NCBI GenBank assembly: GCA_036261885.1
Contig: DATAJY010000012.1
Span: forward strand, 143,458 to 207,457
DNA length: 64,000 bases
Source: Thermoanaerobaculia bacterium
Lineage (GTDB): Bacteria > Acidobacteriota > Thermoanaerobaculia > Gp7-AA8
Direction: 5' to 3'
Both the position numbers and the translations under genes were made by a program. Below, piece after piece: positions 1 through 13,092 of the stretch. Within the stretch, counting starts at the first letter, position 1; the number at the start of each line of letters is the position of its first letter. The notes under the pieces are model-generated. The model made no database searches, was not told the origin of the DNA, and saw nothing but the letters and a program-made list of their open reading frames with translations.

Positions 1-27
1 CGGAAGTCTACCAGTACACTACGCGCC

Positions 28-981
28 GTGAAGCGCTTCCTCACCCTGGCCCGGCCATTCACGCTGCTCCCGCCGCTGCTCGGAATCATCTCCGGCGCGG
101 TCTGCGCGTGGGGATCGGCGCACAACCCCGATCCGTCGCGCGCGGTGACGGTCTCGGTGATTCTGACCGTCGCGCTCGGCTCGCTCTGCGCCGCGTTTCT
201 CAACGCCGCGAACAACACGCTCAATCAGATCTACGACCTCGAGATCGATCGCATCAACAAGCCGAATCGTCCGCTCGTGACCGGCGAGGTCTCGATCCGC
301 GACGCCTGGGTCTTCACCTGGATCTGCTACGCCGTCGGCACCATCCCGACCTGGCTCGTGGTCGTCTATCCGTACACCACGTTCACGCGGAAGCTCTTCG
401 CTCCGCTCTCGTGGCACGAGTGCTTTTTCATCTACGCCGTGGCGCTGCTCTCGACGTTCGTCTATTCGGTCCCGGCGCTCGGCCGCACGAAAGCGCATCC
501 GATCGGTGCGAACCTCACCATCGCCATTCCCCGCGGCTGTCTCCTGAAAGTGGCCGGCTGGACGATGGTCGCGCGCGCGTCGTTCGCCGAGCCGTGGTTC
601 ATCGGTCTGATCTTCATGACCTTCCTCCTCGGCGCGGCGTCGACGAAAGACTTCAGCGACATGGATGGCGATCGCGCCGGCGGCTGCCGTACGCTGCCGA
701 TCGCATTCGGCGTGCGCAGAGCCGCGTGGATGATCGCGCCGTTCTTCGTGCTGCCGTGGTTGCTGATGCCGCTCGGGGCCCGTCTCGGCATCCTCACCGG
801 GAACGCGACGTTCATCACGATTCTCGGGATCGTCCTCGCGCTGTGGGGCGTCTACACGGTCTGGTTGATCGTGCGCAATCCCGACGAACTCACCGCGACG
901 GAGAATCACCCGTCGTGGCGGCACATGTATCTGATGATGATGGCCGCGCAGGTCGGCTTTGCCGCAGCCTATCTCGTTTGA
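28..981 (+). CDS. UbiA-family prenyltransferase (integral membrane)
   Basis: 317-aa ORF with many hydrophobic segments. Asp-rich motif NNTLNQIYDLEIDRINKPNRP and a second acidic motif KDFSDMDGDR are typical of the UbiA superfamily. The frame is open to the window edge, so the true start could lie upstream of GTG 28. Confidence 0.8.
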   Translation: MKRFLTLARPFTLLPPLLGIISGAVCAWGSAHNPDPSRAVTVSVILTVALGSLCAAFLNAANNTLNQIYDLEIDRINKPNRPLVTGEVSIRDAWVFTWICYAVGTIPTWLVVVYPYTTFTRKLFAPLSWHECFFIYAVALLSTFVYSVPALGRTKAHPIGANLTIAIPRGCLLKVAGWTMVARASFAEPWFIGLIFMTFLLGAASTKDFSDMDGDRAGGCRTLPIAFGVRRAAWMIAPFFVLPWLLMPLGARLGILTGNATFITILGIVLALWGVYTVWLIVRNPDELTATENHPSWRHMYLMMMAAQVGFAAAYLV

Positions 982-1038
982 TCGCCGTCGCGTCTGCTAA
1001 ACTCGCTCGTTCAGTTCGCATCGGTCCGCAGGTCAATC

Positions 1039-1416
1039 ATGAGAATTCCGCAGCCGCCCGTGAGCCACGAGTGTATCGACGGCGAAGTCGTCATCATCAA
1101 CATGGAGACGGGCACGTACTACAGCCTGCTCGGTCTCGCGTCGACGCTCTGGCAGAACATCGTCGCGGGAACGACTTACGACCGGCTGCTCGCCCGCTTC
1201 GACGGGGACGTGCAGCCTGAAGTCAGCGCGTTTCTCCACGAGCTCGCACAGGACCGCCTCGTCGATCTCGACGCGGAGCCCGCGCAGATCGGTGAAGAGA
1301 TCGCACTGCCGGCGTACAGCACTCCGCGCGTCGAGAGATTCACGGACCTTCAGGAACTGCTGATGCTCGACCCGATTCACGAAGTCGACGCCGCAGGCTG
1401 GCCCCACAAGAGCTGA
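1039..1416 (+). CDS. PqqD-family protein (RiPP-recognition-element-like peptide chaperone)
   Basis: 125-aa ORF. The pattern IDGEVVIINMETGTYYSLLGLASTLWQNI...VSAFLHELAQDRLV matches the PqqD/RRE winged-helix signature as I remember it. No clear SD, so the start is uncertain. Confidence 0.7.
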   Translation: MRIPQPPVSHECIDGEVVIINMETGTYYSLLGLASTLWQNIVAGTTYDRLLARFDGDVQPEVSAFLHELAQDRLVDLDAEPAQIGEEIALPAYSTPRVERFTDLQELLMLDPIHEVDAAGWPHKS

Positions 1417-1418
1417 CG

Positions 1419-2411
1419 GTGCCGCTTACGCAGCAGCTCGAGATCGAAGATGTCTTCGCCGTCGCCGCGGCGCGCCTCGGCGTTTACGAAGATCATCTCT
1501 CGATCGCCGGACTGCACGTCCAGCTCCGATTCGCCGGCGATCGTCTGCGCACGCGACTCCTGCCCGCACTCACGCATCGCATCACCGTTCCGCGCGATCC
1601 CGACGCGACGATCCTGATTTACGACTGCGCGTCCGCGCGCATCGAGAAGCCCGCCGTTCCGTGGCGCGCCGAAGACGTTGGCGTGCGCGGCGAGGTTCAG
1701 CTCGACGACGCGCTGCGCGTCTCGCTCTTCGCACCGTCGGGCGCGCTGAGTGTGTTCGACGCGTCGCGCAATCTCGGGATCTTCACCGTCGGCGACGCCA
1801 TCGGACTGCCGTCATACGAACGCGCGGCACCGTTCCGCACGTTGCTGCACTGGCTGCTCGAATCGCGAAATTGCAGGCTCGCACACGCGGCCGCCGTCGC
1901 GACGGATCGCGGCGGTGCGTTGCTCGCGGGTCGCGGCGGCTCGGGCAAATCGACGACGGCGCTCCTCTGCGCGACTGCCGGACTGCGTTACGCCGGCGAC
2001 GACTACGTCGGCATCACGGCCGCTCCCGCGACCGCGCACGCGCTGTACTCGAGCGCGAAGATCGATGCGACGTCCGCGGCGTTGCTGCCCGGCGTCGCGC
2101 TGCACATCGACCCGCGGGAGAATGAAAAAGGTGTGGCGTTGCTGACCGAAGTCGCCGATTCCTTTCCGATTCGCGCGCTCGTGTTGCCGCGGGTCACCGG
2201 CGGCACGTCGCGACTTCGGCGGGCGAGTGGTGCCGAGGCGTTGCGGGCGCTTGCGCCGACGACGGTGTTCCAACTGCCCGGCAATGACGGCGCGACGTTC
2301 GCGTGGATGGCCACGCTCGCACGTACGATCCCCGCGTTCGCGCTCGACCTCGGCGACGATCGCGAGCAGATCCCCGCGCTCGTGCAGCGCGCGATCGAGG
2401 AGAGCGCATGA
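1419..2411 (+). CDS. HprK-related kinase-like P-loop protein
   Basis: 330-aa ORF with a GTG start 2 nt after the PqqD-like stop. P-loop GRGGSGKSTTALL followed by YAGDDYV resembles the HPr kinase C-terminal domain. Confidence 0.65.
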   Translation: MPLTQQLEIEDVFAVAAARLGVYEDHLSIAGLHVQLRFAGDRLRTRLLPALTHRITVPRDPDATILIYDCASARIEKPAVPWRAEDVGVRGEVQLDDALRVSLFAPSGALSVFDASRNLGIFTVGDAIGLPSYERAAPFRTLLHWLLESRNCRLAHAAAVATDRGGALLAGRGGSGKSTTALLCATAGLRYAGDDYVGITAAPATAHALYSSAKIDATSAALLPGVALHIDPRENEKGVALLTEVADSFPIRALVLPRVTGGTSRLRRASGAEALRALAPTTVFQLPGNDGATFAWMATLARTIPAFALDLGDDREQIPALVQRAIEESA

Positions 2412-3070
2412 GCGTCGTGAGCGTGATCGTTCCGACATTCAACGGCGCCGCGACGATCGTCGAGGCGGTGGAAAGCGTGCGCGCGCAGTCGATGCCCGTC
2501 GAGATTCTCGTCGTCGACGACGGCTCCACCGACGACACGCCGCGCCTCCTTCGCGACCTCGGCGTCCTCACGATTCGTCAGGAAAATGCCGGCCCCGCGG
2601 CCGCGCGCAACACGGGACTCGCGCATGCGACCGCGGCGTACGTCGCGTTCATCGACGACGACGACATCTGGATGCCGCGCCGCCTCGCCACGCAGCTCGC
2701 GATTCTCGAAGCGCATCCGGAGGTGTTCGCGACGATCGGCTACTCCGCGTTCGTCGCGTGTGATGCGAACGGCGATGCGATGGGCGAGCCGACCGAACCG
2801 CATCTCTTCGCGAACATGGGCGCAGCGCTCGTGCGTCGCGAGGCCTTCGATCGCATCGGCGCGTTCGATCCGACACTCACGGGCAGCGAAGACGTCGACT
2901 GGTATCTCCGACTGCGCGACGCCGGACTCGGTCCGCTGATCACGCGCGATCTCGTGCAGCTCGTGCGCAGAACCGGCGAGAACATGACGCGCGGCAAAGA
3001 TCTGCGCGAGCTCGACATGCACACGGTGCTGCAGCGCTCCATCGCGCGGCGGAGGAAGGTGGGCGCATGA
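2408..3070 (+). CDS. Glycosyltransferase family 2
   Basis: Internal ATG 2408 overlaps the upstream stop (ATGA). N-terminus VSVIVPTFNGAATIVEAVESVRAQS...ILVVDDGSTDDT, then FIDDDD (DxD). Classic GT2 fold motifs. Confidence 0.85.
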   Translation: MSVVSVIVPTFNGAATIVEAVESVRAQSMPVEILVVDDGSTDDTPRLLRDLGVLTIRQENAGPAAARNTGLAHATAAYVAFIDDDDIWMPRRLATQLAILEAHPEVFATIGYSAFVACDANGDAMGEPTEPHLFANMGAALVRREAFDRIGAFDPTLTGSEDVDWYLRLRDAGLGPLITRDLVQLVRRTGENMTRGKDLRELDMHTVLQRSIARRRKVGA

Positions 3071-3741
3071 CGCAGCAACCGCCCGTCGCGGTGATCGTGC
3101 CGGTGTTCAACGGTGCGCGCTTTCTTGCCGAGGCGCTGGACAGCGTGCTGGCGCAGGACTATCGGCCGCTGGAGATCATCGTCGTCGACGATGGCTCGAC
3201 CGACGGCAGTGCGGAGATCGCAGCGACGCGCGAAGTCCTCGTCATCCGCCAGGAACGTCGCGGCGTCGCGACGGCGCGCAACGTCGGCATCGCCGCGGCG
3301 ACCGCGCCGATCCTCATGCTGATCGATCAGGACGACCTCTGGCGGCCCGGCAAGGCGCGCAAGCAGGTCGACGTGTTGCTCGCGCATCCCGATCGCGTCT
3401 GTCTGACGCTGCAGGAGTTTTTCCTCGACGCATCGATCGCGGAGCGGCCGGTCTGGATGCGGCCGGAGTTGATGGACGCGCCGAGTCCGGGATGGATGCC
3501 GAGCTGCATCGCATTCACGCGATCGACGTTCGAGTATGTCGGCGAGTTCGATCCGAGCTACGCGCAGGGCAGCGATTCGGACTGGTTCGCCCGCGCCAAA
3601 GCGAAGGGCGTCCTCTTTGAAACGATCGAGGAGTCGCTCGTGCGGCATCGCCTTCATGATTCCAACGAGTCAGGCGCGGTGAGCGCGCATCGCGAACTGC
3701 TGCAGGTGGTGCGTCGCGCGGTGGCGCAACGACGGAAATGA
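3067..3741 (+). CDS. Glycosyltransferase family 2
   Basis: ATGA overlap with the upstream gene. VAVIVPVFNGARFLAEALDSVLAQDYRPLEIIVVDDGSTDGS and LIDQDD motifs. Confidence 0.85.
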   Translation: MTQQPPVAVIVPVFNGARFLAEALDSVLAQDYRPLEIIVVDDGSTDGSAEIAATREVLVIRQERRGVATARNVGIAAATAPILMLIDQDDLWRPGKARKQVDVLLAHPDRVCLTLQEFFLDASIAERPVWMRPELMDAPSPGWMPSCIAFTRSTFEYVGEFDPSYAQGSDSDWFARAKAKGVLFETIEESLVRHRLHDSNESGAVSAHRELLQVVRRAVAQRRK

Positions 3742-4439
3742 CGCCCATGAATCAGCCTTTTCTCAGCGTCGTCGTCCCGGCGTACAACTCCGAGCGCACC
3801 ATCGCGGAGGCGCTCGAAAGCGTGCTCGCGCAGACCCCGCGCGAAACCGAAGTGATCATCGTCGATGACGGCTCGACCGACGGCACGGTCGCGGTCGCGG
3901 AAGGATTCGGCTACCTCGTGCGCATCGTGCGCGCGCCACACGCCGGCATCGCGCGCACGTTCAACCGCGGCATGCAGGAGGCGCGCGGCAAATGGGTTGC
4001 ATCGATCGACGCCGACGATCGCTGGCTGCCGCACAAGCTCGAGCGCCAGTTCGCCGCGCTCGATGCGGATCCTTCCATCGACGTCGTGTTCGGCTTCGTG
4101 CGCCAGTTCGTTTCTCCCGAGCTCGCCGATCAGCGCTGGCGTTTCGCGATCTCCGATGAGCCCGTGCCCGGCCTGCATCGCGGCTGCATGCTCATGCGTC
4201 GCGAGGTGTGGGATCGCGTCGGCGAGTTCGATACGAAGATCTCCGCCGGCGAGTTCGTCGGCTGGTACGCGCGCGCCGTCGATGCGGGCGTGACGATGCA
4301 CACGATCCCCGAGGTCATTTACGAGCGGCGCGTGCACGACAACAACACCGTTCGCCGCGAGCGCTCCACGCTCGACAGCAATTACCTGCGTGTGCTCAAG
4401 GCGACGCTCGATCGCCGTCGCACGGAGAAGAACGGTTGA
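3738..4439 (+). CDS. Glycosyltransferase family 2
   Basis: ATGA overlap with the upstream gene. LSVVVPAYNSERTIAEALESVLAQTPRETEVIIVDDGSTDGT and SIDADD motifs. Confidence 0.85.
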   Translation: MTPMNQPFLSVVVPAYNSERTIAEALESVLAQTPRETEVIIVDDGSTDGTVAVAEGFGYLVRIVRAPHAGIARTFNRGMQEARGKWVASIDADDRWLPHKLERQFAALDADPSIDVVFGFVRQFVSPELADQRWRFAISDEPVPGLHRGCMLMRREVWDRVGEFDTKISAGEFVGWYARAVDAGVTMHTIPEVIYERRVHDNNTVRRERSTLDSNYLRVLKATLDRRRTEKNG

Positions 4440-4468
4440 TCTACTTCGCGCATCGCTCCGGCACGTTC

Positions 4469-5581
4469 ATGCCGACCCGCGTCGAGCATCATCTGCTGCG
4501 CGCGTCGCTGTCGGCGGACGCCGTCGCGGTGCGCGCGTCGTTCGATGAGTGGAAGGCATCCGTCGATTTGAACGACGTCGAGTACGGATCGCTGCGTCTG
4601 TTGCCGCTGCTGTATCGCAACCTGCAGAAACACGGCATCGACGACGCGGTGATGCCGCGCCTCAAAGGCATCTATCGCAACGCGTGGGTGCGCAATCAGC
4701 TCGTCGTCCAACACGGACTCCGCGCGATGCGCGCACTGCGCGAGCAAGGCATCGCGTCGATCGTGCTCAAGGGCGCGTCGTTGGTCGCCGATGGTTCGTA
4801 CGCGGAGCTCGCATTGCGTCCGATGGAAGACTTCGATCTCCTCGTCGCGCCGGACGAATTTCGTCGCGCGGTCGATGTGCTGCGCGATGGCGGCTGGAAC
4901 TTTCATCCGGCGTCCGTCGAGGCCGAGTGGTACCTGCCGTATCGCCACGCGGTCGCGTTTCGCAACGGCAGCGGCGAGCTCGATCTGCACTGGGCGTCGA
5001 TTCGCGATCGCTTCCACGGCGACGATGCATTTCGTCGCGCGTCCGTCGATGCGAAGCTGCTGGGCGAGGACGTGCGCGTGCTGGCGCCGCCCGATCAGTT
5101 GCTGCAGGCGTGCGGACACGCGAGCGCACGCAACGTCGACGTCGCGCCGATCCGCTGGGTCGCGGACGTCTGGTTCCTCCTCGCGAAACACGGCGACGCG
5201 TTCGACTGGCAACGCGTCGTGAGCGGCGCGCGCGATCGCGACCTCTCCTTCGCCGCGCTCCGGTGCCTCGAATACCTCCATGTCGGCCTCGGCGCCAACA
5301 TCCCGCTCACGGTTCTGCTCGAGCTCGAACGCGACTCCGGCATCGCCAGTCGCGTGTCGCTGAAGCTGCGCAACAGCTACGGTCCCGCGATCTACGCGTA
5401 CGTGCTATCGGTGTGGCTGCGACTCGCATTCGCGAAGCCGTATCGCGGCATCCCGCGCCGCGTCGCGCTGCTGCCGAAATACGTGCGCTTCTACTTCCGC
5501 CTGCCGCAGGACGCATCGCTGATGCGCTTCGTCGCGCGCAAGCTGAGAGCGCGCCTCGCTCCGGCGTCATCCCAGGCGTAA
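4469..5581 (+). CDS. Uncharacterised nucleotidyltransferase family protein (NTP_transf_5-like)
   Basis: Frame of ORF 4208..5581. First ATG after the upstream stop is 4469; an alternative TTG at 4436 overlaps that stop. VLKGASLVADGSYAELALRPMEDFDLLVAPDEF matches the PF14907-type motif as I remember it. Confidence 0.65.
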   Translation: MPTRVEHHLLRASLSADAVAVRASFDEWKASVDLNDVEYGSLRLLPLLYRNLQKHGIDDAVMPRLKGIYRNAWVRNQLVVQHGLRAMRALREQGIASIVLKGASLVADGSYAELALRPMEDFDLLVAPDEFRRAVDVLRDGGWNFHPASVEAEWYLPYRHAVAFRNGSGELDLHWASIRDRFHGDDAFRRASVDAKLLGEDVRVLAPPDQLLQACGHASARNVDVAPIRWVADVWFLLAKHGDAFDWQRVVSGARDRDLSFAALRCLEYLHVGLGANIPLTVLLELERDSGIASRVSLKLRNSYGPAIYAYVLSVWLRLAFAKPYRGIPRRVALLPKYVRFYFRLPQDASLMRFVARKLRARLAPASSQA

Positions 5582-5599
5582 ACACGGGATCCCCTTCAC

Positions 5600-7024
5600 T
5601 CAAACGCTCGCCGCCAGCTCCTTCCGCAGAAACGCGATCGCCGATTCGAGCTGATGGCGCTCCAGCGCGATCGCCCGGACGTCGCCGCCGCAGTGCGGGC
5701 AGATCTGCGTCATCGGCTGGATGTACTGCATGCAGCCGAAGCAGAGATCGAGCGTCGGCGGCAGCCGATCTTCGTCGCGCTGCTCCGGTTCCTTCATCTC
5801 CCACCGCGGCGGCACGGCGACCGTGCGCGGACCCTCGCCCCCATCGAGCGGCTCGGTGATGAGATCGAAGCGTCCCTGATCGAACGGCGTGCCGGGCGCT
5901 TCCTGCGTCTTCACGATCCGCTCGCGCAGGCCTTCCTTCGCCAGCTGCGTGGCGCGGTAATGACAGTACGGATTGTTGCCCGGACGTCCGAACAACACGG
6001 TCGAAGTCCACGTGCAGCCGCCGCGGCAGACGTCGGCGTAGTAGCACGTGCCGCAACGCCCCCACAGTTCGGAGATCTGGCGATCGCGCGAGAAGCGGAT
6101 CTCGCGGCTGTAGCGCCAGATGTCTTCGATGGTCATGTCGCGAACGTTGCCGCCGCTGAAGCCGACGGTCGGCAGCGACGGACATCCTTTGATCACACCA
6201 TCGGCCTCGATGCCCATCACGCCGTGACCGGCCGCGCATCCGCTCCAGTGCTTTTCGTTGTTGCCGAGGCGCCACTTGTGCTCGTACGGTCCGAAGTAGC
6301 CGACGTTGTTGCCGGGCTGCATGGCCACGCCGAGCGCGCGCGCCTCGTCGTACAACTCGCCGAGGAGCGGCATCAGGTCGAGCAGTTCATACGGCTGCAG
6401 GAGCAGCGAGTCGTTGTCGACGGCATTCCCCATTGCCACCGTCAGCTGGATCTGCCAGCCGCGCGCACCGCGGCTCGCGATCTCGTGCAGGATGCCGCGC
6501 ATCTGCGGCATGGTCCGGCTGTGGATCTGCGTGTTGCAGCCGGCCGGAATCTCGTACTGGCGCAGCAGCTCGAGCGCGTGCATCGCGGAGCGGAACGAGC
6601 CCTTCACACCCCGGATCTCGTCGTGCAGCTCCTCGAGCCCGTCGACCGACACGCCGCACGTGCCGAGGCCTGCTTTCTTCGCCGCCGCAATGCGCTCCTC
6701 GGTGAGCGCGCGTCCGCCGGTCTGCATCGACGCCAGCATCCCGTGACTGGTGATGCGGGCGATGATGTCGGTCCAGTCGCGGCGCAGATACGCTTCGCCG
6801 CCGATGATCGTGATCTCGCGCGTGCCGAGTGCGGCGAGCTGATCGACGACGTCGAAACACTCCTCGGTCGACAGCTCCGAGGGACGACGCTTCCCCGCGC
6901 GCGAGCCGCAATGCGCGCACTTCAGATTGCACGCGAGCGTGATCTCCCACACCACGTGCACGGGATGGGCGTGCATGAAATCGTCTTCACGCAACGCACG
7001 GCGGGGAAGCGCCTCGGCGGTCAT
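5600..7024 (-). CDS. Radical SAM / SPASM-domain enzyme with C-terminal zinc-ribbon extension
   Basis: 474 aa. CxxxCxxC cluster motif ITLACNLKCAHCGS. SPASM-like Cys cluster GCPSLP...GRCGTCYYADVCRGGCTWTS...YCHY. An extra about 100-aa tail carries CFGCMQYIQPMTQICPHCGG. Confidence 0.85.
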   Translation of the reverse strand: MTAEALPRRALREDDFMHAHPVHVVWEITLACNLKCAHCGSRAGKRRPSELSTEECFDVVDQLAALGTREITIIGGEAYLRRDWTDIIARITSHGMLASMQTGGRALTEERIAAAKKAGLGTCGVSVDGLEELHDEIRGVKGSFRSAMHALELLRQYEIPAGCNTQIHSRTMPQMRGILHEIASRGARGWQIQLTVAMGNAVDNDSLLLQPYELLDLMPLLGELYDEARALGVAMQPGNNVGYFGPYEHKWRLGNNEKHWSGCAAGHGVMGIEADGVIKGCPSLPTVGFSGGNVRDMTIEDIWRYSREIRFSRDRQISELWGRCGTCYYADVCRGGCTWTSTVLFGRPGNNPYCHYRATQLAKEGLRERIVKTQEAPGTPFDQGRFDLITEPLDGGEGPRTVAVPPRWEMKEPEQRDEDRLPPTLDLCFGCMQYIQPMTQICPHCGGDVRAIALERHQLESAIAFLRKELAASV

Positions 7025-7314
7025 GAGGTCTGGGTCGATCCGAGATGCTGTTCGAGTGTGCTGATCGCCGCCGAGAGATCGGCACGCCCGGTCGCACGCG
7101 CCGATTCGAGCAGCGACTGCAGCTCTTCCTTCGATGCGCCGGCGGAGATCCGCTGCTGGATGATCACGCCGTACAGCGTGTGAAGACCGCCGTCATTGAA
7201 ATACCCCTTTGCGGCCTGCAAGACCTCTTTCATCTGATTCGCATCGCCGCTGCTCAGCGCTTCGTCGATCCAGACTCCATACAAGGGACGCGGACGGGAA
7301 CCATAGCCTGCCAT
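7021..7314 (-). CDS. Small internally repeated helical protein (possible rSAM substrate or partner)
   Basis: ATG 7314 is preceded by AAGGAGG with a 6-nt spacer (reverse complement of 7318-7326). The stop overlaps the rSAM start (ATGA at 7021-7024). Two repeats: LYGVWIDEALSSGDANQMKEVL and LYGVIIQQRISAGASKEELQSLL. Possibly DUF1843-like (from memory). Confidence 0.6.
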   Translation of the reverse strand: MAGYGSRPRPLYGVWIDEALSSGDANQMKEVLQAAKGYFNDGGLHTLYGVIIQQRISAGASKEELQSLLESARATGRADLSAAISTLEQHLGSTQTS

Positions 7315-7429
7315 AGCTGCCTCCTTTTTTCCGTGGGACAACGGATGTTTATGGGAAGGAAGAAATGATTAGTGTCCAAACGGCAGGAAGTCAACAATCA
7401 AAAATAGCAGGCTGTGCGACGATAGCCCG

Positions 7430-8332
7430 ATGTTCTCCCTCCGGCCCGAGCTCGAACGATTGCGGCCGCTGCTCGGCGAGTCACGCACCGACGCGCTGAT
7501 CGCCCGCGAGCGGCGCGAAATCTTTTCGATCTACCCGGAAGTGCGCCTCGCCGCGTGGGCTGGCGTGATGCTCCTCGCCGGCGCCGCCGGCGTTCTGTTG
7601 AAAAACAATCTCGAGCGCATCGGACCGGTCGCTCTCGCCACCGGCATCGCCGTGCTCGCCGCCGCGTGCTATGCCTTCGTCACTTGGCGCCGCGACCGCG
7701 CCACGCTCGTCGATGATTACGTTCTGCTCCTTGGGGCACTGCTCCTCAGCGCCGACGTCGCGTTCATCGAGACGCAGTTCCACGTTCTCGGCCAGCAGTG
7801 GCGACAGCATCTGTTGCTCATCGCGATCCTGCACGCCATCACCGCGTATCGCTTTCGATCGCGCGTGATTCTGTCGCTCGCGATCTCGTCGCTGGCCGCG
7901 TGGGTCGGAGCCGATCATCGCATCGCGCGGCCGTACCAGTTCGGCGTCGCCGCGTACGTCATGGTCGCGCTGCTGCTGGTGTGGCGCGCGCTCGATCAGC
8001 GTTTCGCGAAGAGCGATTTCGCGCGCACGCTCGAACACTTCGCCGCGAACTTCGCGCTGCTCGGCGGGCTCGCGTTCATCGATACGAACGTCGCCGCCGG
8101 CTGCCTGATCACCATCGTCGTTGCGGCGGTGGTCATCTACTGGGGCTTCGGCTCGCGCAGCGAGTGGTTCGTGCTCTATGCGTTTCTCTACGCCGTGATC
8201 GCGCTGAACATCCTCATCATCGACGCGATGCACTTCGAGGCGGCGGCGTTCCTGCTGATCATCGTTTCGATCGTCGGCTCGATCATCGGCCTCTTCGCCA
8301 TTCATGCGAAATTCAAGGAACTGCACGCATGA
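7430..8332 (+). CDS. Polytopic membrane protein, unknown function
   Basis: 300-aa ORF with about 8 hydrophobic helices. Strong third-position GC bias in this frame. Divergent from the small protein/rSAM pair across an AT-richer spacer. Confidence 0.6.
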   Translation: MFSLRPELERLRPLLGESRTDALIARERREIFSIYPEVRLAAWAGVMLLAGAAGVLLKNNLERIGPVALATGIAVLAAACYAFVTWRRDRATLVDDYVLLLGALLLSADVAFIETQFHVLGQQWRQHLLLIAILHAITAYRFRSRVILSLAISSLAAWVGADHRIARPYQFGVAAYVMVALLLVWRALDQRFAKSDFARTLEHFAANFALLGGLAFIDTNVAAGCLITIVVAAVVIYWGFGSRSEWFVLYAFLYAVIALNILIIDAMHFEAAAFLLIIVSIVGSIIGLFAIHAKFKELHA

Positions 8333-9327
8333 ACGTGATCGAGGAACGCGAACAGGCTGCGCGGTCGCGCTTTCCGCGCGAGGCGAAGGAAGCATTCGGC
8401 GAAGCGAAGTACCGCGCCAACGGCGTGGTGGTGCAGGTCGTTTTTTTTCTCCTGACGTGCGTCGGCATCGGCGCGATGTACGCGTTTCTCGAAGCTCTCG
8501 ATTTCGATGACAGCGCGGGTGTCATCACCGGCGTGATCGCGATCGCCATCGGCGAGGTGCTGATTCGCGTGCGCCGCTGGTTCGGCACCGGTGTCGAAGC
8601 GGCGCTGTGGCTCGGCGGTCTCGTTTCGATCATCAGCGAGCTGCCGAGCAGCGGTGCACCGGAGGCGATGCTGGTGCTCGGCGCCGCCGCGGCGCTCGCG
8701 GGGTGGCGCGTGCGCAATCCGTTGTTCGGCGCCGTTGCCGCGATGTTCGTGGCCGAGTACGCGGAGAAGCGGGCCGACCTCGGCGTCGTCTGCGCGCTCG
8801 CGATCGCGCTCGCGGCGGGGCTGCTCCTGCTGCGCGAGTGGAAGCGGCCGTCGACGGAGTGGCTCTTCATCGCCCTCGTCGTGCTGCTGCCGCTCTTCGG
8901 CCGCATCACAGCAGACCCGCAATGGCGGACCACGACCATCACGCTTTACGGCGTCTTCGGTGCGCTGCTGCTGACGCTCGGCGTGGTGAAGCGTCATCAC
9001 GCGCTGCTCGTGTCCGGGCTTCTGGCGCTGGCCGTCGGGGTCGCGGATTTCGGGGCGCTGCTCGATGCGCCGCTGGAGTCGGAGCTGCTGGTCGCCGGCG
9101 CGTTGCTTCTGGCCGGCTCGTACCGGGTTTCGCGGACGCTGCGCGGGCGAACGACCGGTATCGTCGTGACGCCCGCGAAGCTCACGCCGGTGGACGAAGT
9201 TTTCGAGTCGGCGGGCGGCTTTGTAGCCGGTCATGCGACACAGTCGATCGATTCGCCGGCCGCGGGCGAAGCGAGGCCGGCCGGGGACGGCCGTTTCGGC
9301 GGCGCGGGCGCAAGCGACGGGTATTGA
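8329..9327 (+). CDS. Polytopic membrane protein, unknown function
   Basis: Internal ATG 8329 overlaps the upstream stop (ATGA). 332 aa, many hydrophobic helices, with a Gly/Ala-rich soluble tail. Confidence 0.55.
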   Translation: MNVIEEREQAARSRFPREAKEAFGEAKYRANGVVVQVVFFLLTCVGIGAMYAFLEALDFDDSAGVITGVIAIAIGEVLIRVRRWFGTGVEAALWLGGLVSIISELPSSGAPEAMLVLGAAAALAGWRVRNPLFGAVAAMFVAEYAEKRADLGVVCALAIALAAGLLLLREWKRPSTEWLFIALVVLLPLFGRITADPQWRTTTITLYGVFGALLLTLGVVKRHHALLVSGLLALAVGVADFGALLDAPLESELLVAGALLLAGSYRVSRTLRGRTTGIVVTPAKLTPVDEVFESAGGFVAGHATQSIDSPAAGEARPAGDGRFGGAGASDGY

Positions 9328-9705
9328 AGATGTTCCACGTGCCACAATTTGTGTGCAGTCCCCTCACAGACCACCATCCCTTGTGGTTCTGAATCGCGGA
9401 AAACTCGTTTTCCACAGATTTCGGCTACCGCCTTCCTTTCGCCCTTTTTTCAGTGGCCGGGTCCGCTTCTCCGGCGCGGAATTCACCTCGAAAAAGCTGC
9501 TGAAAAGAGAACGACGTCCGTTGCTGATAATTCGCACGGAAAACATGCGCAAAAGCTGCGGAGAACGGGCGGATTTACTGAGGATTCACGGATTTCAGAC
9601 CTGTGAATAACCCTGCGGAAAACCTGTCGAGAAGCAGCGGAACACCAGCGGATCTCCGGTGGAAAAGGAGGCCGATGCGGCCTCAGCCATGGAATGCGTA
9701 ACTAC

Positions 9706-9735
9706 TTGGAAACACGAATATTTACGCGCTATATT
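9706..9735 (+). promoter_or_regulatory. Candidate sigma70-type promoter for nrdJ leader
   Basis: TTGGAA (9706-9711), 18-bp spacer, TATATT (9730-9735). The -10 lies inside NrdR-box-like site 1. Confidence 0.35.
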
Positions 9736-9739
9736 GTGT
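9724..9739. promoter_or_regulatory. NrdR-box-like operator 1
   Basis: ACGCGCTATATTGTGT matches 13/16 positions of the NrdR box consensus acaCwAtATaTwGtgt as I recall it. Confidence 0.5.
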
Positions 9740-9750
9740 TTGCCCGGAGT

Positions 9751-9774
9751 AAGACCACAAGATCTTGTGGTCTT
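9751..9774. promoter_or_regulatory. NrdR-box-like operator 2 inside a perfect 24-bp palindrome
   Basis: AAGACCACAAGATCTTGTGGTCTT is a perfect palindrome. Its core CCACAAGATCTTGTGG (9755-9770) matches 12/16 of the NrdR consensus. Centre-to-centre distance to box 1 is 31 bp. Confidence 0.55.
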
Positions 9775-9846
9775 CGTCTTGACACGCCGAGGGCCGAAGC
9801 GTACGTTGTCGAGCATCAAAACAACGTGCTGATGTGAGGGAGGCGT

Positions 9847-9999
9847 ATGAAGGATTTGAAGCAGTCGACTCGTCCTGTGAACCATGCCCCCGTCCGCTCC
9901 GTTTCGCTGCAGATCCGCGATTATCAGGTGACGGTGAAGGTCAGGTCGTCGGTGCCGCAAATCCAGGGTTCTCGCTCCGTTCGCGCGTCGTTTCGTTGA
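9847..9999 (+). CDS. Possible 50-aa leader ORF in nrdJ 5' region
   Basis: ATG 9847 is preceded by GGGAGG with a 5-nt spacer. Translation: MKDLKQSTRPVNHAPVRSVSLQIRDYQVTVKVRSSVPQIQGSRSVRASFR. Codon bias is weak, so it may be non-coding. Confidence 0.2.
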   Translation: MKDLKQSTRPVNHAPVRSVSLQIRDYQVTVKVRSSVPQIQGSRSVRASFR

Positions 10000-10022
10000 T
10001 CGTTTGAAGCCATGAAGGTTGC

Positions 10023-10054
10023 GCCATCGCACCCACCAATTTTGGTGCGATGGC
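10023..10054 (+). promoter_or_regulatory. Perfect 11-bp stem hairpin in nrdJ leader
   Basis: GCCATCGCACC (10023-10033), 10-nt loop, GGTGCGATGGC (10044-10054). Confidence 0.5.
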
Positions 10055-10174
10055 AGTGTCGGGGGAGGTAGGGGATGGAAGTTCGGTCGAGGGACACCGG
10101 AGTCCCGGCGGCGCTCTGAAAAGGATCCACAGAGCTCCTGCCGTTCGGTTTCCTTCCACGCAGGTCGAACTGCC

Positions 10175-10218
10175 CTCCTCTGCTTTTTTTTTCTGAATGT
10201 GTGTGTGATTGAGAGGAG
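10175..10218 (+). promoter_or_regulatory. Possible anti-SD/SD pairing plus T9 tract ahead of nrdJ
   Basis: CTCCTCT (10175-10181) is complementary to AGAGGAG (10212-10218) in the nrdJ SD region GAGAGGAGAG. A run of nine T (10184-10192) lies between them. Confidence 0.3.
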
Positions 10219-10227
10219 AGTTGAGTC

Positions 10228-13092
<2,865 letters not shown>

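Follow-up and report, generated by a model that had tools for sequence, protein, structure and literature searches.

A widespread lasso-free cassette of a PqqD-like protein, an HprK-like kinase, GT2 glycosyltransferases and a PF14907 protein, with a putative peptide substrate fused to the recognition domain

Introduction

The tailoring module of the lasso peptides paeninodin, pseudomycoidin and Bsf is the closest working parallel to the gene cassette described here. The cassette occupies positions 1039-5581 of the window, a 64,000-nucleotide stretch of contig DATAJY010000012.1 from a Thermoanaerobaculia bacterium of the phylum Acidobacteriota. It encodes a PqqD-like protein, an HprK-like P-loop kinase, three family 2 glycosyltransferases (GT2s; GT2a, GT2b and GT2c) and a protein of the nucleotidyltransferase-fold family PF14907. 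The lasso module comprises HprK-like kinases (PadeK, PsmK and BsfK), nucleotidyltransferases (PsmN and BsfN) and B1-type recognition elements (RREs) for ribosomally synthesised peptides with post-translational modifications (RiPPs). BsfK phosphorylates the Ser3 residue of a lasso precursor, and the B1 RRE BsfB1 strongly accelerates the reaction; phosphorylation sites other than the C-terminal Ser are possible (PMC10368454). PsmK (poly)phosphorylates the C-terminal Ser residue of pseudomycoidin (PMC6993621; reviewed in PMC8498205). The literature places PsmN and BsfN in an uncharacterised nucleotidyltransferase family of the PF14907 type, and PsmN, with its essential DxD motif, is required for the appearance of one or two hexoses on the phosphate (PMC6993621; PMC8498205). 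The statement in an initial annotation of the window that no example of such a pathway had been characterised is thus too strong, given that BsfK and BsfB1 (PMC10368454) and PsmN (PMC6993621) have been characterised in lasso pathways.

Four other systems share individual features with the cassette. HPr-rel-A systems pair an HprK-related kinase A (TIGR04352) with a PqqD-family chaperone (TIGR04353), and a similar pairing of HprK-like and PqqD-like proteins (ScmC and ScmD) occurs in the SynChlorMet cassette. Mycofactocin biosynthesis employs the PqqD-like RRE MftB and the GT2 enzyme MftF, which glycosylates the peptide-derived cofactor. In the borosins (OphMA and relatives), the core peptide forms the C-terminus of the biosynthetic protein, a catalytic methyltransferase, and the modification is N-methylation. 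No description of this lasso-free cassette was found in the searchable literature, which leaves most subscription journals outside; only lasso-peptide papers surfaced.

Results

The cassette recurs across bacterial phyla

At least 306 cassette loci are present in species-representative genomes. Eighty loci were fetched with 10-kb flanks, and the window proteins were mapped onto their six-frame open reading frames (ORFs) using phmmer; the 82 mapped loci include the window's own contigs, L001 and L002. The PqqD-like gene lies beside the kinase gene in 79 of the 82 mapped loci. The combination of a PqqD-like gene, a kinase gene, at least one GT2 gene and a PF14907 gene is found in 46 of the 52 adequately flanked loci, or in 48 if two weak PqqD matches are counted. 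The number of GT2 genes in the flanked loci is one (8 loci), two (24 loci), three (18 loci) or four (1 locus). The order in the window, PqqD-kinase-GT2-GT2-GT2-PF14907, is the commonest architecture (12/52).

The initial annotation had described one conserved functional unit in which three GT2 genes were inserted into a triad of PqqD-like, kinase and PF14907 genes. The unit itself is borne out: the cassette turns up again in dozens of genomes that are phylogenetically far apart, so that the gene linkage is far beyond chance. The insertion is not, as 51 of the 52 adequately flanked loci hold one to four GT2 genes and kinase-GT2 fusions exist. The neighbourhood survey finds the GT2 genes travelling with the PqqD-like, kinase and PF14907 genes, and the GT2 genes are core components of the cassette. 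Within a large, conserved and uncharacterised family, the window operon is ordinary, and the locus itself is not unusual.

The cassette spans more than 15 bacterial phyla. Its hosts belong to the Acidobacteriota, Cyanobacteria, Chloroflexota, Planctomycetota (Brocadiia), Desulfobacterota, Nitrospirota, Bacteroidota, Ignavibacteriota, Alpha- and Gammaproteobacteria, Actinomycetota, Bacillota, Armatimonadota, Patescibacteria, Omnitrophota, Eisenbacteria, Rokubacteria and Myxococcota, and one locus is found in the metagenome-assembled genome (MAG) of a Woesearchaeota archaeon. Cultured cyanobacteria with homologues include Oscillatoria sp. PCC 10802 (L077) and Chamaesiphon polymorphus CCALA 037 (L040). 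One locus (L069; CAMBZJ010000003.1) is labelled 'MAG: Klebsiella pneumoniae', which is odd beside the environmental phyla and may be a binning or labelling error.

Gene fusions link several of the cassette components. The kinase is fused to a GT2 domain in L068 (9923-11737) and in the proteins P0060 and P0117, and two GT2 domains are fused in L003 (10891-12429). The PF14907 domain is joined to a GT41 domain in L048 (8637-11477) and to a sulfotransferase in L070 (4492-6792). GT41 is the O-GlcNAc-transferase family that acts on proteins, and the PF14907-GT41 fusion hints at a protein or peptide acceptor. Accessory genes encode an ATP-binding cassette (ABC) exporter (23 loci, ~30% of cassettes), GT4 enzymes, sulfotransferases, a methyltransferase and enzymes of the short-chain dehydrogenase/reductase (SDR) type. 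The window cassette contains no ABC exporter, and neither an exporter nor a protease is found at the window locus. The conserved neighbours of the 80 loci include neither an Asn-synthetase-like lasso cyclase (C) nor a transglutaminase-like leader peptidase (B2) family. Similarly, a Pfam and NCBIfam scan of the ten principal ORFs between positions 28 and 8332 bears out the reported absence of a lasso cyclase and a leader peptidase. The cassette is not a lasso cluster because it lacks both the cyclase and the B2 peptidase.

The PqqD-like protein carries a leader-like motif and a near-invariant tail

The PqqD-like protein matches PF05402 with 32.5 bits (gathering score 23.4). Its AlphaFold2 (AF2) model (predicted local distance difference test (pLDDT) score 87) adopts an RRE fold of three strands and three helices, and the best Foldseek matches of the model are the TbiB1-leader complexes 5v1u and 5v1v (template modelling score TMt 0.75-0.79). 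The profile of the PqqD-like family matches BsfB1 with 52 bits, and BsfB1 ends where the linker of the window protein starts. For all 43 family members examined, the best NCBIfam match is lasso_PqqD_Bac (NF033536), below its threshold. By profile and predicted fold, the PqqD-like protein is a lasso-B1-type RRE.

Conservation peaks in the C-terminal tail, not in the PqqD domain, in alignments of 77 locus-derived and 43 database homologues. The family consensus of the tail, which follows a variable linker, is F/Y-x-x-P-x-L-x-K-F/Y-T-D-M-Q-E-L-L-L-L-D-P-I-H-E-V-D-x-x-G-W-P. It combines a leader-like motif, conserved in ~95% of 315 distinct tails, with a core-like segment. Across these 315 tails, position 93 is aromatic in 298, position 96 is P in 304 and position 98 is L, V, I, F or M in 314. 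In the core-like segment, position 102 is T or S in 276 tails and D or E in 24, and D103 (305/315), D111 (315/315), P112 (313/315), H114 (314/315) and V116 (301/315) are conserved. Alignment A2 shows no variation at L110, D111, I113, H114 and P122. Among the hydroxyl residues of the tail, only T/S102 is well conserved (88%).

The leader-like motif resembles that of lasso precursors. B1 RREs reportedly recognise a YxxPxL leader motif, according to work on TbiB1. In lasso precursors, YxxPxL occupies positions -17 to -12 of the leader (PMC10368454). When Y is set to -17, as in the lasso register, the invariant LDPIH begins at core position +1 (L110). The AF2 model gives a pLDDT of 96 for residues 91-100, with a strand at residues 99-101, and low confidence for residues 109-125. 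Residues 91-101 are presumably packed on the RRE domain, and the low confidence of residues 109-125 would fit a flexible end.

Two observations concern candidate acceptor residues. At position 102 (window 1342-1344), 24 of the 39 replacements of T/S are Asp or Glu, which looks phosphomimetic; such a pattern would be expected of a phospho-site turned constitutively acidic. The C-terminal Ser residue was considered as a family-wide phospho-acceptor following the paeninodin model and was rejected on account of its occurrence in 7 of 77 homologues.

A phmmer search of 1.84 billion representative proteins with the 36-residue tail (E<=0.001) retrieved 1,579 clusters at 50% identity, and in almost all of them the tail forms the C-terminus of a protein of 120-160 aa. 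Four short tail-only proteins were placed on contigs, and two of them stand (L086 and L087). In these two contigs, the tail is encoded with its leader-like motif by a stand-alone ORF of 51-65 aa directly upstream of the kinase gene. L086 comes from an organism of low GC content, L087 from one of high GC content, and neither contig encodes an RRE in any frame. The other two candidates, L088 and L089, were rejected as stand-alone tail genes and represent frameshift-split RRE-tail genes in error-prone or low-coverage assemblies. In addition, P0238 (284 aa) contains a tandem duplication of the RRE-tail unit with a degenerate first tail and an intact second tail. P0235 (185 aa) appears to consist of an N-terminal segment of the kinase, the last RRE helix and the tail, and may be a chimera or an assembly artefact.

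Neither a second tail copy nor a separate precursor was detected. A search of six-frame segments of the loci and of the 64-kb window with a hidden Markov model (HMM) of the tail, using hmmsearch, yielded no second copy; each locus contains one tail, located in the PqqD-like gene. A blastp-short comparison of ORFs of 18-120 aa outside the known genes, located inside the 80 cassettes or within 1.5 kb of them, revealed no conserved precursor family, and the sole small-ORF clusters are shared by three closely related Oscillatoria genomes. This re-scan of the flanks agrees with the earlier failure to see a short precursor gene. The accompanying claim that the locus has no precursor is probably wrong, given the leader-like and core-like segment that is fused to the RRE.

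The kinase is related to HprK and shares its motif with BsfK

The family assignments of the initial annotation hold at the level of curated HMMs for PF05402, PF00535 and PF14907, all of which pass their gathering scores, and fail for the kinase, which reaches no curated threshold. The window kinase has no match at all in a Pfam scan; PF07475 (Hpr_kinase_C) does not match it and scores its homologues at 19.5-26 bits versus a gathering score of 33.3. Among NCBIfam models, TIGR04352 and TIGR04355 score the kinase at 27-29 bits (26.8 bits for TIGR04352) versus a cut-off of 200, and all 29 members of the kinase family match TIGR04352 weakly, below threshold.

Structural comparisons and the catalytic motif place the kinase more precisely. 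Its AF2 model (pLDDT 92) matches ATP-dependent phosphoenolpyruvate carboxykinase (PEPCK), a known structural relative of HprK, in Foldseek (E 2.6e-10, TMq 0.55-0.62). The four best Protein Data Bank (PDB) matches of the kinase family profile, built from 29 homologues, are HprK structures aligned over the P-loop. Residues H156, G171, G174, G176, K177, S178, D194 and D195 are invariant in the 29 homologues. Their spacing is identical to that of the BsfK motif H148-G163-G166-G168-K169-S170-D186-D187, which has been tested by mutation (PMC10368454). BsfK scores 24 bits on the kinase family profile. On the basis of the PDB profile matches, the motif and spacing shared with BsfK and the predicted fold, the window kinase is assigned as an HprK/PEPCK-type P-loop kinase despite the failed curated thresholds. 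More than 1,195 homologues of the kinase are present in the protein database. Many of them carry the precomputed Pfam accession PF27840, which is therefore taken as a family recently built for this kinase.

The GT2 and PF14907 proteins retain catalytic motifs

All three GT2s match PF00535 in Pfam (112, 104 and 123 bits) and contain DxD motifs in their translations, and none reaches an equivalog-level NCBIfam model. A GT2c-type gene is found in 75 of the 82 mapped loci, and GT2c is the GT2 type kept in almost all cassettes. Among solved structures, GT2c is closest to generic enzymes of the GT-A type, for example chondroitin synthase (2z86).

The PF14907 protein scores 139.7 bits versus a gathering score of 31.2. 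Each of its residues K101, G102, R117, D121-x-D123, D172, H174 and D233 is shared by at least 90% of 48 homologues. D121 and D123 are probably the counterpart of the PsmN residues D134 and D136, which are essential (PMC6993621). No solved structure is related to the PF14907 protein by sequence. Overall, the predicted catalytic residues are kept in the kinase, the PF14907 protein and the three GT2s.

Operon layout and flanking genes

The six cassette genes are arranged as a co-directional series, and their translational coupling is confirmed by the ORF list and the junction sequences, as is the spacing to the upstream UbiA gene (Table 1). The PF14907 gene starts either at ATG 4469, with a 29-nt gap, or at TTG 4436, with a TTGA overlap with the GT2c stop codon. 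In a relative with an 87%-identical kinase, the annotated gene begins before the GT2c gene has ended. A promoter and terminator consensus scan of positions 1-7600 revealed nothing exceeding the shuffled expectation, and Rfam and tRNA scans of the window gave no matches. PADLOC defence models yielded no meaningful match, only a generic viperin similarity of the neighbouring radical S-adenosylmethionine (rSAM) enzyme and one match with an E value of 0.005.

Table 1. Coordinates of the cassette, of segments of the PqqD-like protein and of flanking genes in the window
Feature	Position	Strand	Remarks
UbiA-family prenyltransferase	28-981	+	PF01040 112 bits, no equivalog reached; diverges from NYN-domain gene
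PqqD-like protein, 125 aa	1039-1416	+	PF05402; 57-nt gap after UbiA
RRE domain, lasso-B1-type	~residues 8-75 of PqqD-like protein	+	followed by short linker and conserved C-terminal tail
Leader-like motif Y93-S-T-P96-R-V98	1315-1332	+	family consensus [FYW]xxPx[LVI]
Core-like tail F101-T-D-L-Q-E-L-L-M-L-D-P-I-H-E-V-D-A-A-G-W-P122	1339-1404	+	near-invariant
HprK/PEPCK-like P-loop kinase, 330 aa	1419-2411	+	GTG start, 2 nt past PqqD stop
GT2a glycosyltransferase, 220 aa, soluble	2408-3070	+	PF00535 111.8 bits; 'IDDDD'; ATGA overlap with kinase stop
GT2b glycosyltransferase, 224 aa	3067-3741	+	PF00535 104.3 bits; 'IDQDD'; ATGA overlap
GT2c glycosyltransferase, 233 aa	3738-4439	+	PF00535 122.6 bits; 'IDADD'; ATGA overlap
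PF14907 (NTP_transf_5) nucleotidyltransferase-fold protein, 370 aa from ATG 4469	4469-5581	+	PF14907 139.7 bits
Radical SAM/SPASM maturase	5600-7024	-	TIGR03913 633.1 bits, cut-off 591.75
DUF1843 protein, 106 aa	7021-7341	-	PF08898 44.7 bits; 4-nt overlap, upstream of rSAM
DUF2157 membrane protein, 300 aa, then 332-aa hydrophobic protein	7430-9327	+	4-nt overlap; no family match for hydrophobic protein

The cassette is flanked by UbiA on one side and by a convergent rSAM/DUF1843 pair on the other. The initial annotation overlooked this pair as well as the conserved tail of the PqqD-like protein. The rSAM enzyme passes the TIGR03913 model ('GDL motif peptide-associated radical SAM/SPASM maturase'), and its partner DUF1843 protein contains two repeats of an LYGV...GD...-type motif. 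The pair looks like a separate, uncharacterised RiPP-like system. The convergent stop codons of the PF14907 and rSAM genes are 18 nt apart (5581-5600) with no terminator-like hairpin between the two genes, and transcription from either side would enter the opposing gene. UbiA may be co-transcribed with the cassette.

The flanking genes are not shared by the cassette family. Among the mapped loci, UbiA, rSAM, DUF1843 and DUF2157 are found only on the window's own contig (0/80 other loci). The relative with the 87%-identical kinase keeps UbiA and the rSAM/DUF1843 pair. L085, the kinase of which is 65% identical, lacks UbiA and contains an upstream PMT_2 glycosyltransferase gene and a GT2-GtrA fusion gene in its place, contrary to the idea that UbiA travels with the cassette. 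Moreover, the DUF2157 gene directly follows the PF14907 gene in L085 and follows the rSAM pair in the window, so the pair appears to have been either inserted in the window lineage or lost in the L085 lineage. UbiA and the rSAM/DUF1843 pair are lineage-specific neighbours, and comparative mapping rejects UbiA, rSAM and DUF1843 as cassette parts. The DUF2157 and hydrophobic-protein genes follow the cassette at the corresponding position in L083 and L085 and are absent from distant cassettes, and their position reflects lineage synteny. Further downstream, the G+C content falls to 0.54-0.58 at 9500-10200, compared with ~0.65 elsewhere, upstream of a class II ribonucleotide reductase gene (10228-13092); no Rfam family reaches its threshold at 9500-10200. 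A class II ribonucleotide reductase encoded in the window shares 95% identity with one of a Thermoanaerobaculia MAG, and by this the host belongs to an uncultured lineage of that class.

Discussion

A tentative model of tail modification

The cassette is tentatively proposed to be a lasso-free peptide-modification system in which the tail of the PqqD-like protein would be phospho-glycosylated by the kinase, the PF14907 enzyme and the GT2s. We infer the tail as substrate, its acceptor residue, the order of the steps and the chemistry from the analogy with BsfK/BsfB1 and PsmK/PsmN. The proposal retains the suggestion of the initial annotation that an RRE guides a glycosylation pathway, which was a reasonable reading. 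The PqqD-like protein would not be merely a chaperone; it would unite an RRE, its own leader-like motif and a core-like tail, and the seemingly missing precursor may be the segment fused to its RRE. The leader-like segment would dock in cis on the RRE and present the tail to the enzymes. The kinase would then phosphorylate a tail residue, for which T/S102 is the best hydroxyl candidate and the invariant H114 and D111 residues are alternatives. The PF14907 enzyme would be needed for the first hexose on the tail phosphate, as PsmN is for pseudomycoidin, and the three GT2s would lengthen the glycan sugar by sugar. The product may be either the small protein in phosphoglycosylated form or a peptide that is released from this protein. 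A broader claim is more doubtful, namely that the cassette represents a new and widespread RiPP-like class in which a leader and an invariant core, fused to the RRE as one self-contained scaffold, receive a phosphodiester-linked oligosaccharide from the HprK-like kinase, a PF14907 'phospho-glycosyl' transferase and serial GT2s, and that it arose as an offshoot of phosphorylated lasso pathways through loss of the cyclase and the peptidase.

Several points weigh against the proposed modification of the tail. The tail contains no strictly invariant Ser or Thr, and 12% of tails lack T/S102. The window protein has ...GWPHKS at its C-terminus, and this terminal Ser is kept only among close relatives (7/77 overall). 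A core that is near-invariant across phyla is unusual for RiPPs, though cofactor precursors behave in this way, and it fits a docking motif equally. Fusion of the substrate to its RRE would make turnover stoichiometric, and the cassette has no conserved protease. The kinase is only a distant relative of the characterised lasso kinases (BsfK 24 bits), the PF14907 protein is probably no closer to its lasso counterpart, and the chemistry of PsmN is not established in vitro (PMC6993621). The cis-docking of the leader-like motif rests on a summary of the AF2 model, and the L086 and L087 contigs with stand-alone tail genes are short, low-coverage metagenomic contigs.

Alternative explanations

The same conservation of the tail could arise if the substrate were encoded elsewhere in the genome and the tail served as a docking or regulatory arm that, for example, recruits the enzymes or blocks the RRE groove by auto-inhibition for as long as the true leader is absent. 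This explanation is rather unlikely but accounts for several features of the family. The tail is near-invariant across phyla like an interaction motif and has no invariant hydroxyl acceptor, RREs that are discrete proteins, such as BsfB1, normally serve separate precursors in a catalytic manner, and similarity clustering of small ORFs may miss hypervariable precursors. It is harder to reconcile with the lack of a conserved small ORF in or beside the 80 cassettes and with the YxxPxL-like motif of the tail, which lasso leaders use for B1 RREs. The stand-alone tail gene upstream of the kinase gene in two RRE-less contigs is also precursor-like in its behaviour.

It is improbable that the cassette produces a non-peptide glycoconjugate, for example an oligosaccharide linked to a polyprenyl group or a lipid, or a glycoside of a small molecule, with the kinase and the PF14907 enzyme activating or capping a sugar and with a coupling to UbiA in the window. 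UbiA does end 57 nt before the PqqD-like gene, and the relative with the 87%-identical kinase has it too, but it is missing from 80 of the 80 other loci. The GT2-GtrA fusion and PMT_2 genes upstream of the cassette in the 65%-identical relative would also suit a lipid-linked product, as the GT2-GtrA domain combination is known from polyprenyl-phosphate sugar synthases. The accessory GT4, sulfotransferase, methyltransferase, SDR/epimerase and ABC exporter genes resemble those of polysaccharide loci; however, no priming phosphoglycosyl transferase, flippase or polymerase is conserved, and every GT2 is a short, soluble GT-A domain. Zyubko et al. left open that a host glycosyltransferase uses a substrate made by PsmN (PMC6993621). 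Against this stand the characterised members of the HprK-like kinase clade, which act on peptides or proteins, and the RRE with its leader-like tail, which has no role in a lipid pathway. A merger of the cassette with the rSAM/DUF1843 pair into one larger RiPP cluster, with the DUF1843 protein as precursor, the PqqD-like protein as RRE and the kinase, PF14907 and GT2 enzymes as tailoring enzymes, is very unlikely. The convergent stop codons of these neighbouring units are separated by 18 nt, the rSAM enzyme passes TIGR03913, the small DUF1843 protein is translationally coupled to it, and the adjacency is kept in the relative with the 87%-identical kinase. Nevertheless, rSAM and DUF1843 are missing from all 80 other cassette loci and from L085, in which the PF14907 gene is directly followed by DUF2157.

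Comparison with described systems

The cassette and the lasso tailoring module share an HprK-like kinase with a motif and spacing identical to those of BsfK, a PF14907-type nucleotidyltransferase with an essential DxD motif, a B1-type PqqD RRE, which stimulates BsfK in the Bsf pathway, a YxxPxL-type leader motif and, in many loci, an ABC exporter. Unlike the lasso module, the window cassette contains no lasso cyclase, B2 peptidase or separate precursor gene, and its leader/core-like segment is fused to the RRE and near-invariant instead of variable. The one to four GT2 genes are obligatory in the cassette, the C-terminal Ser acceptor is not conserved, and the similarity to BsfK is remote.

The cassette differs from the other systems to a greater extent. 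Although HPr-rel-A likewise pairs an HprK-like kinase with a PqqD-family protein, membership in this system, as had been proposed for the window genes, does not hold. In addition to the low TIGR04352 score of the kinase (26.8 bits, cut-off 200), TIGR04353 does not match the window PqqD-like protein (E<=0.01) and matches 11 of 43 family members weakly (best 4.5e-05). By these scores, the cassette is a sister family of HPr-rel-A, not a member. The SynChlorMet proteins ScmC and ScmD weakly match 6 of 29 kinases and 19 of 43 PqqD-like proteins, respectively, all below threshold. The cassette lacks the ScmE and ScmF rSAM enzymes, and the SynChlorMet cassette, to our knowledge, includes neither GT2 nor PF14907. 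Mycofactocin biosynthesis resembles the cassette in combining a PqqD-family chaperone with a GT2, which act there on a peptide-derived product with a conserved core. The three GT2s match the MftF model TIGR03965 at 65-83 bits, far below the cut-off of 280. Unlike mycofactocin loci, the cassette contains no MftA, MftC, MftD or MftE, and the adjacent rSAM enzyme is a TIGR03913-family protein unlinked to the cassette. The likeness to borosins is conceptual, with a substrate segment fused to the C-terminus of a pathway protein. The fusion partner in the cassette is a non-catalytic RRE, the proposed phospho-glycosylation differs from borosin chemistry, and there is no sequence relationship.

Implications

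The family, more than this locus, is the interesting part, with its hidden fusion of RRE, leader and core. Genomes commonly encode PF14907 enzymes and HprK-like 'peptide kinases', which have been seen experimentally only as accessories in a small number of lasso pathways. The cassette offers a clean system for working out how the PF14907 step proceeds chemically. It is tractable, with four to six genes, no need for a separate precursor and cultured cyanobacterial carriers. The questions that it opens to test are how the kinase and the nucleotidyltransferase act as a pair, whether leader and core can be part of the RRE protein itself and what purpose a conserved phosphoglycosylated peptide would serve. 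For genome mining, the lesson is that hunts for small precursors can fail when the precursor hides in the chaperone gene. If the core is indeed invariant and fused to its RRE, the invariant product would more likely be a cofactor, a signal or an envelope component than an antibiotic.

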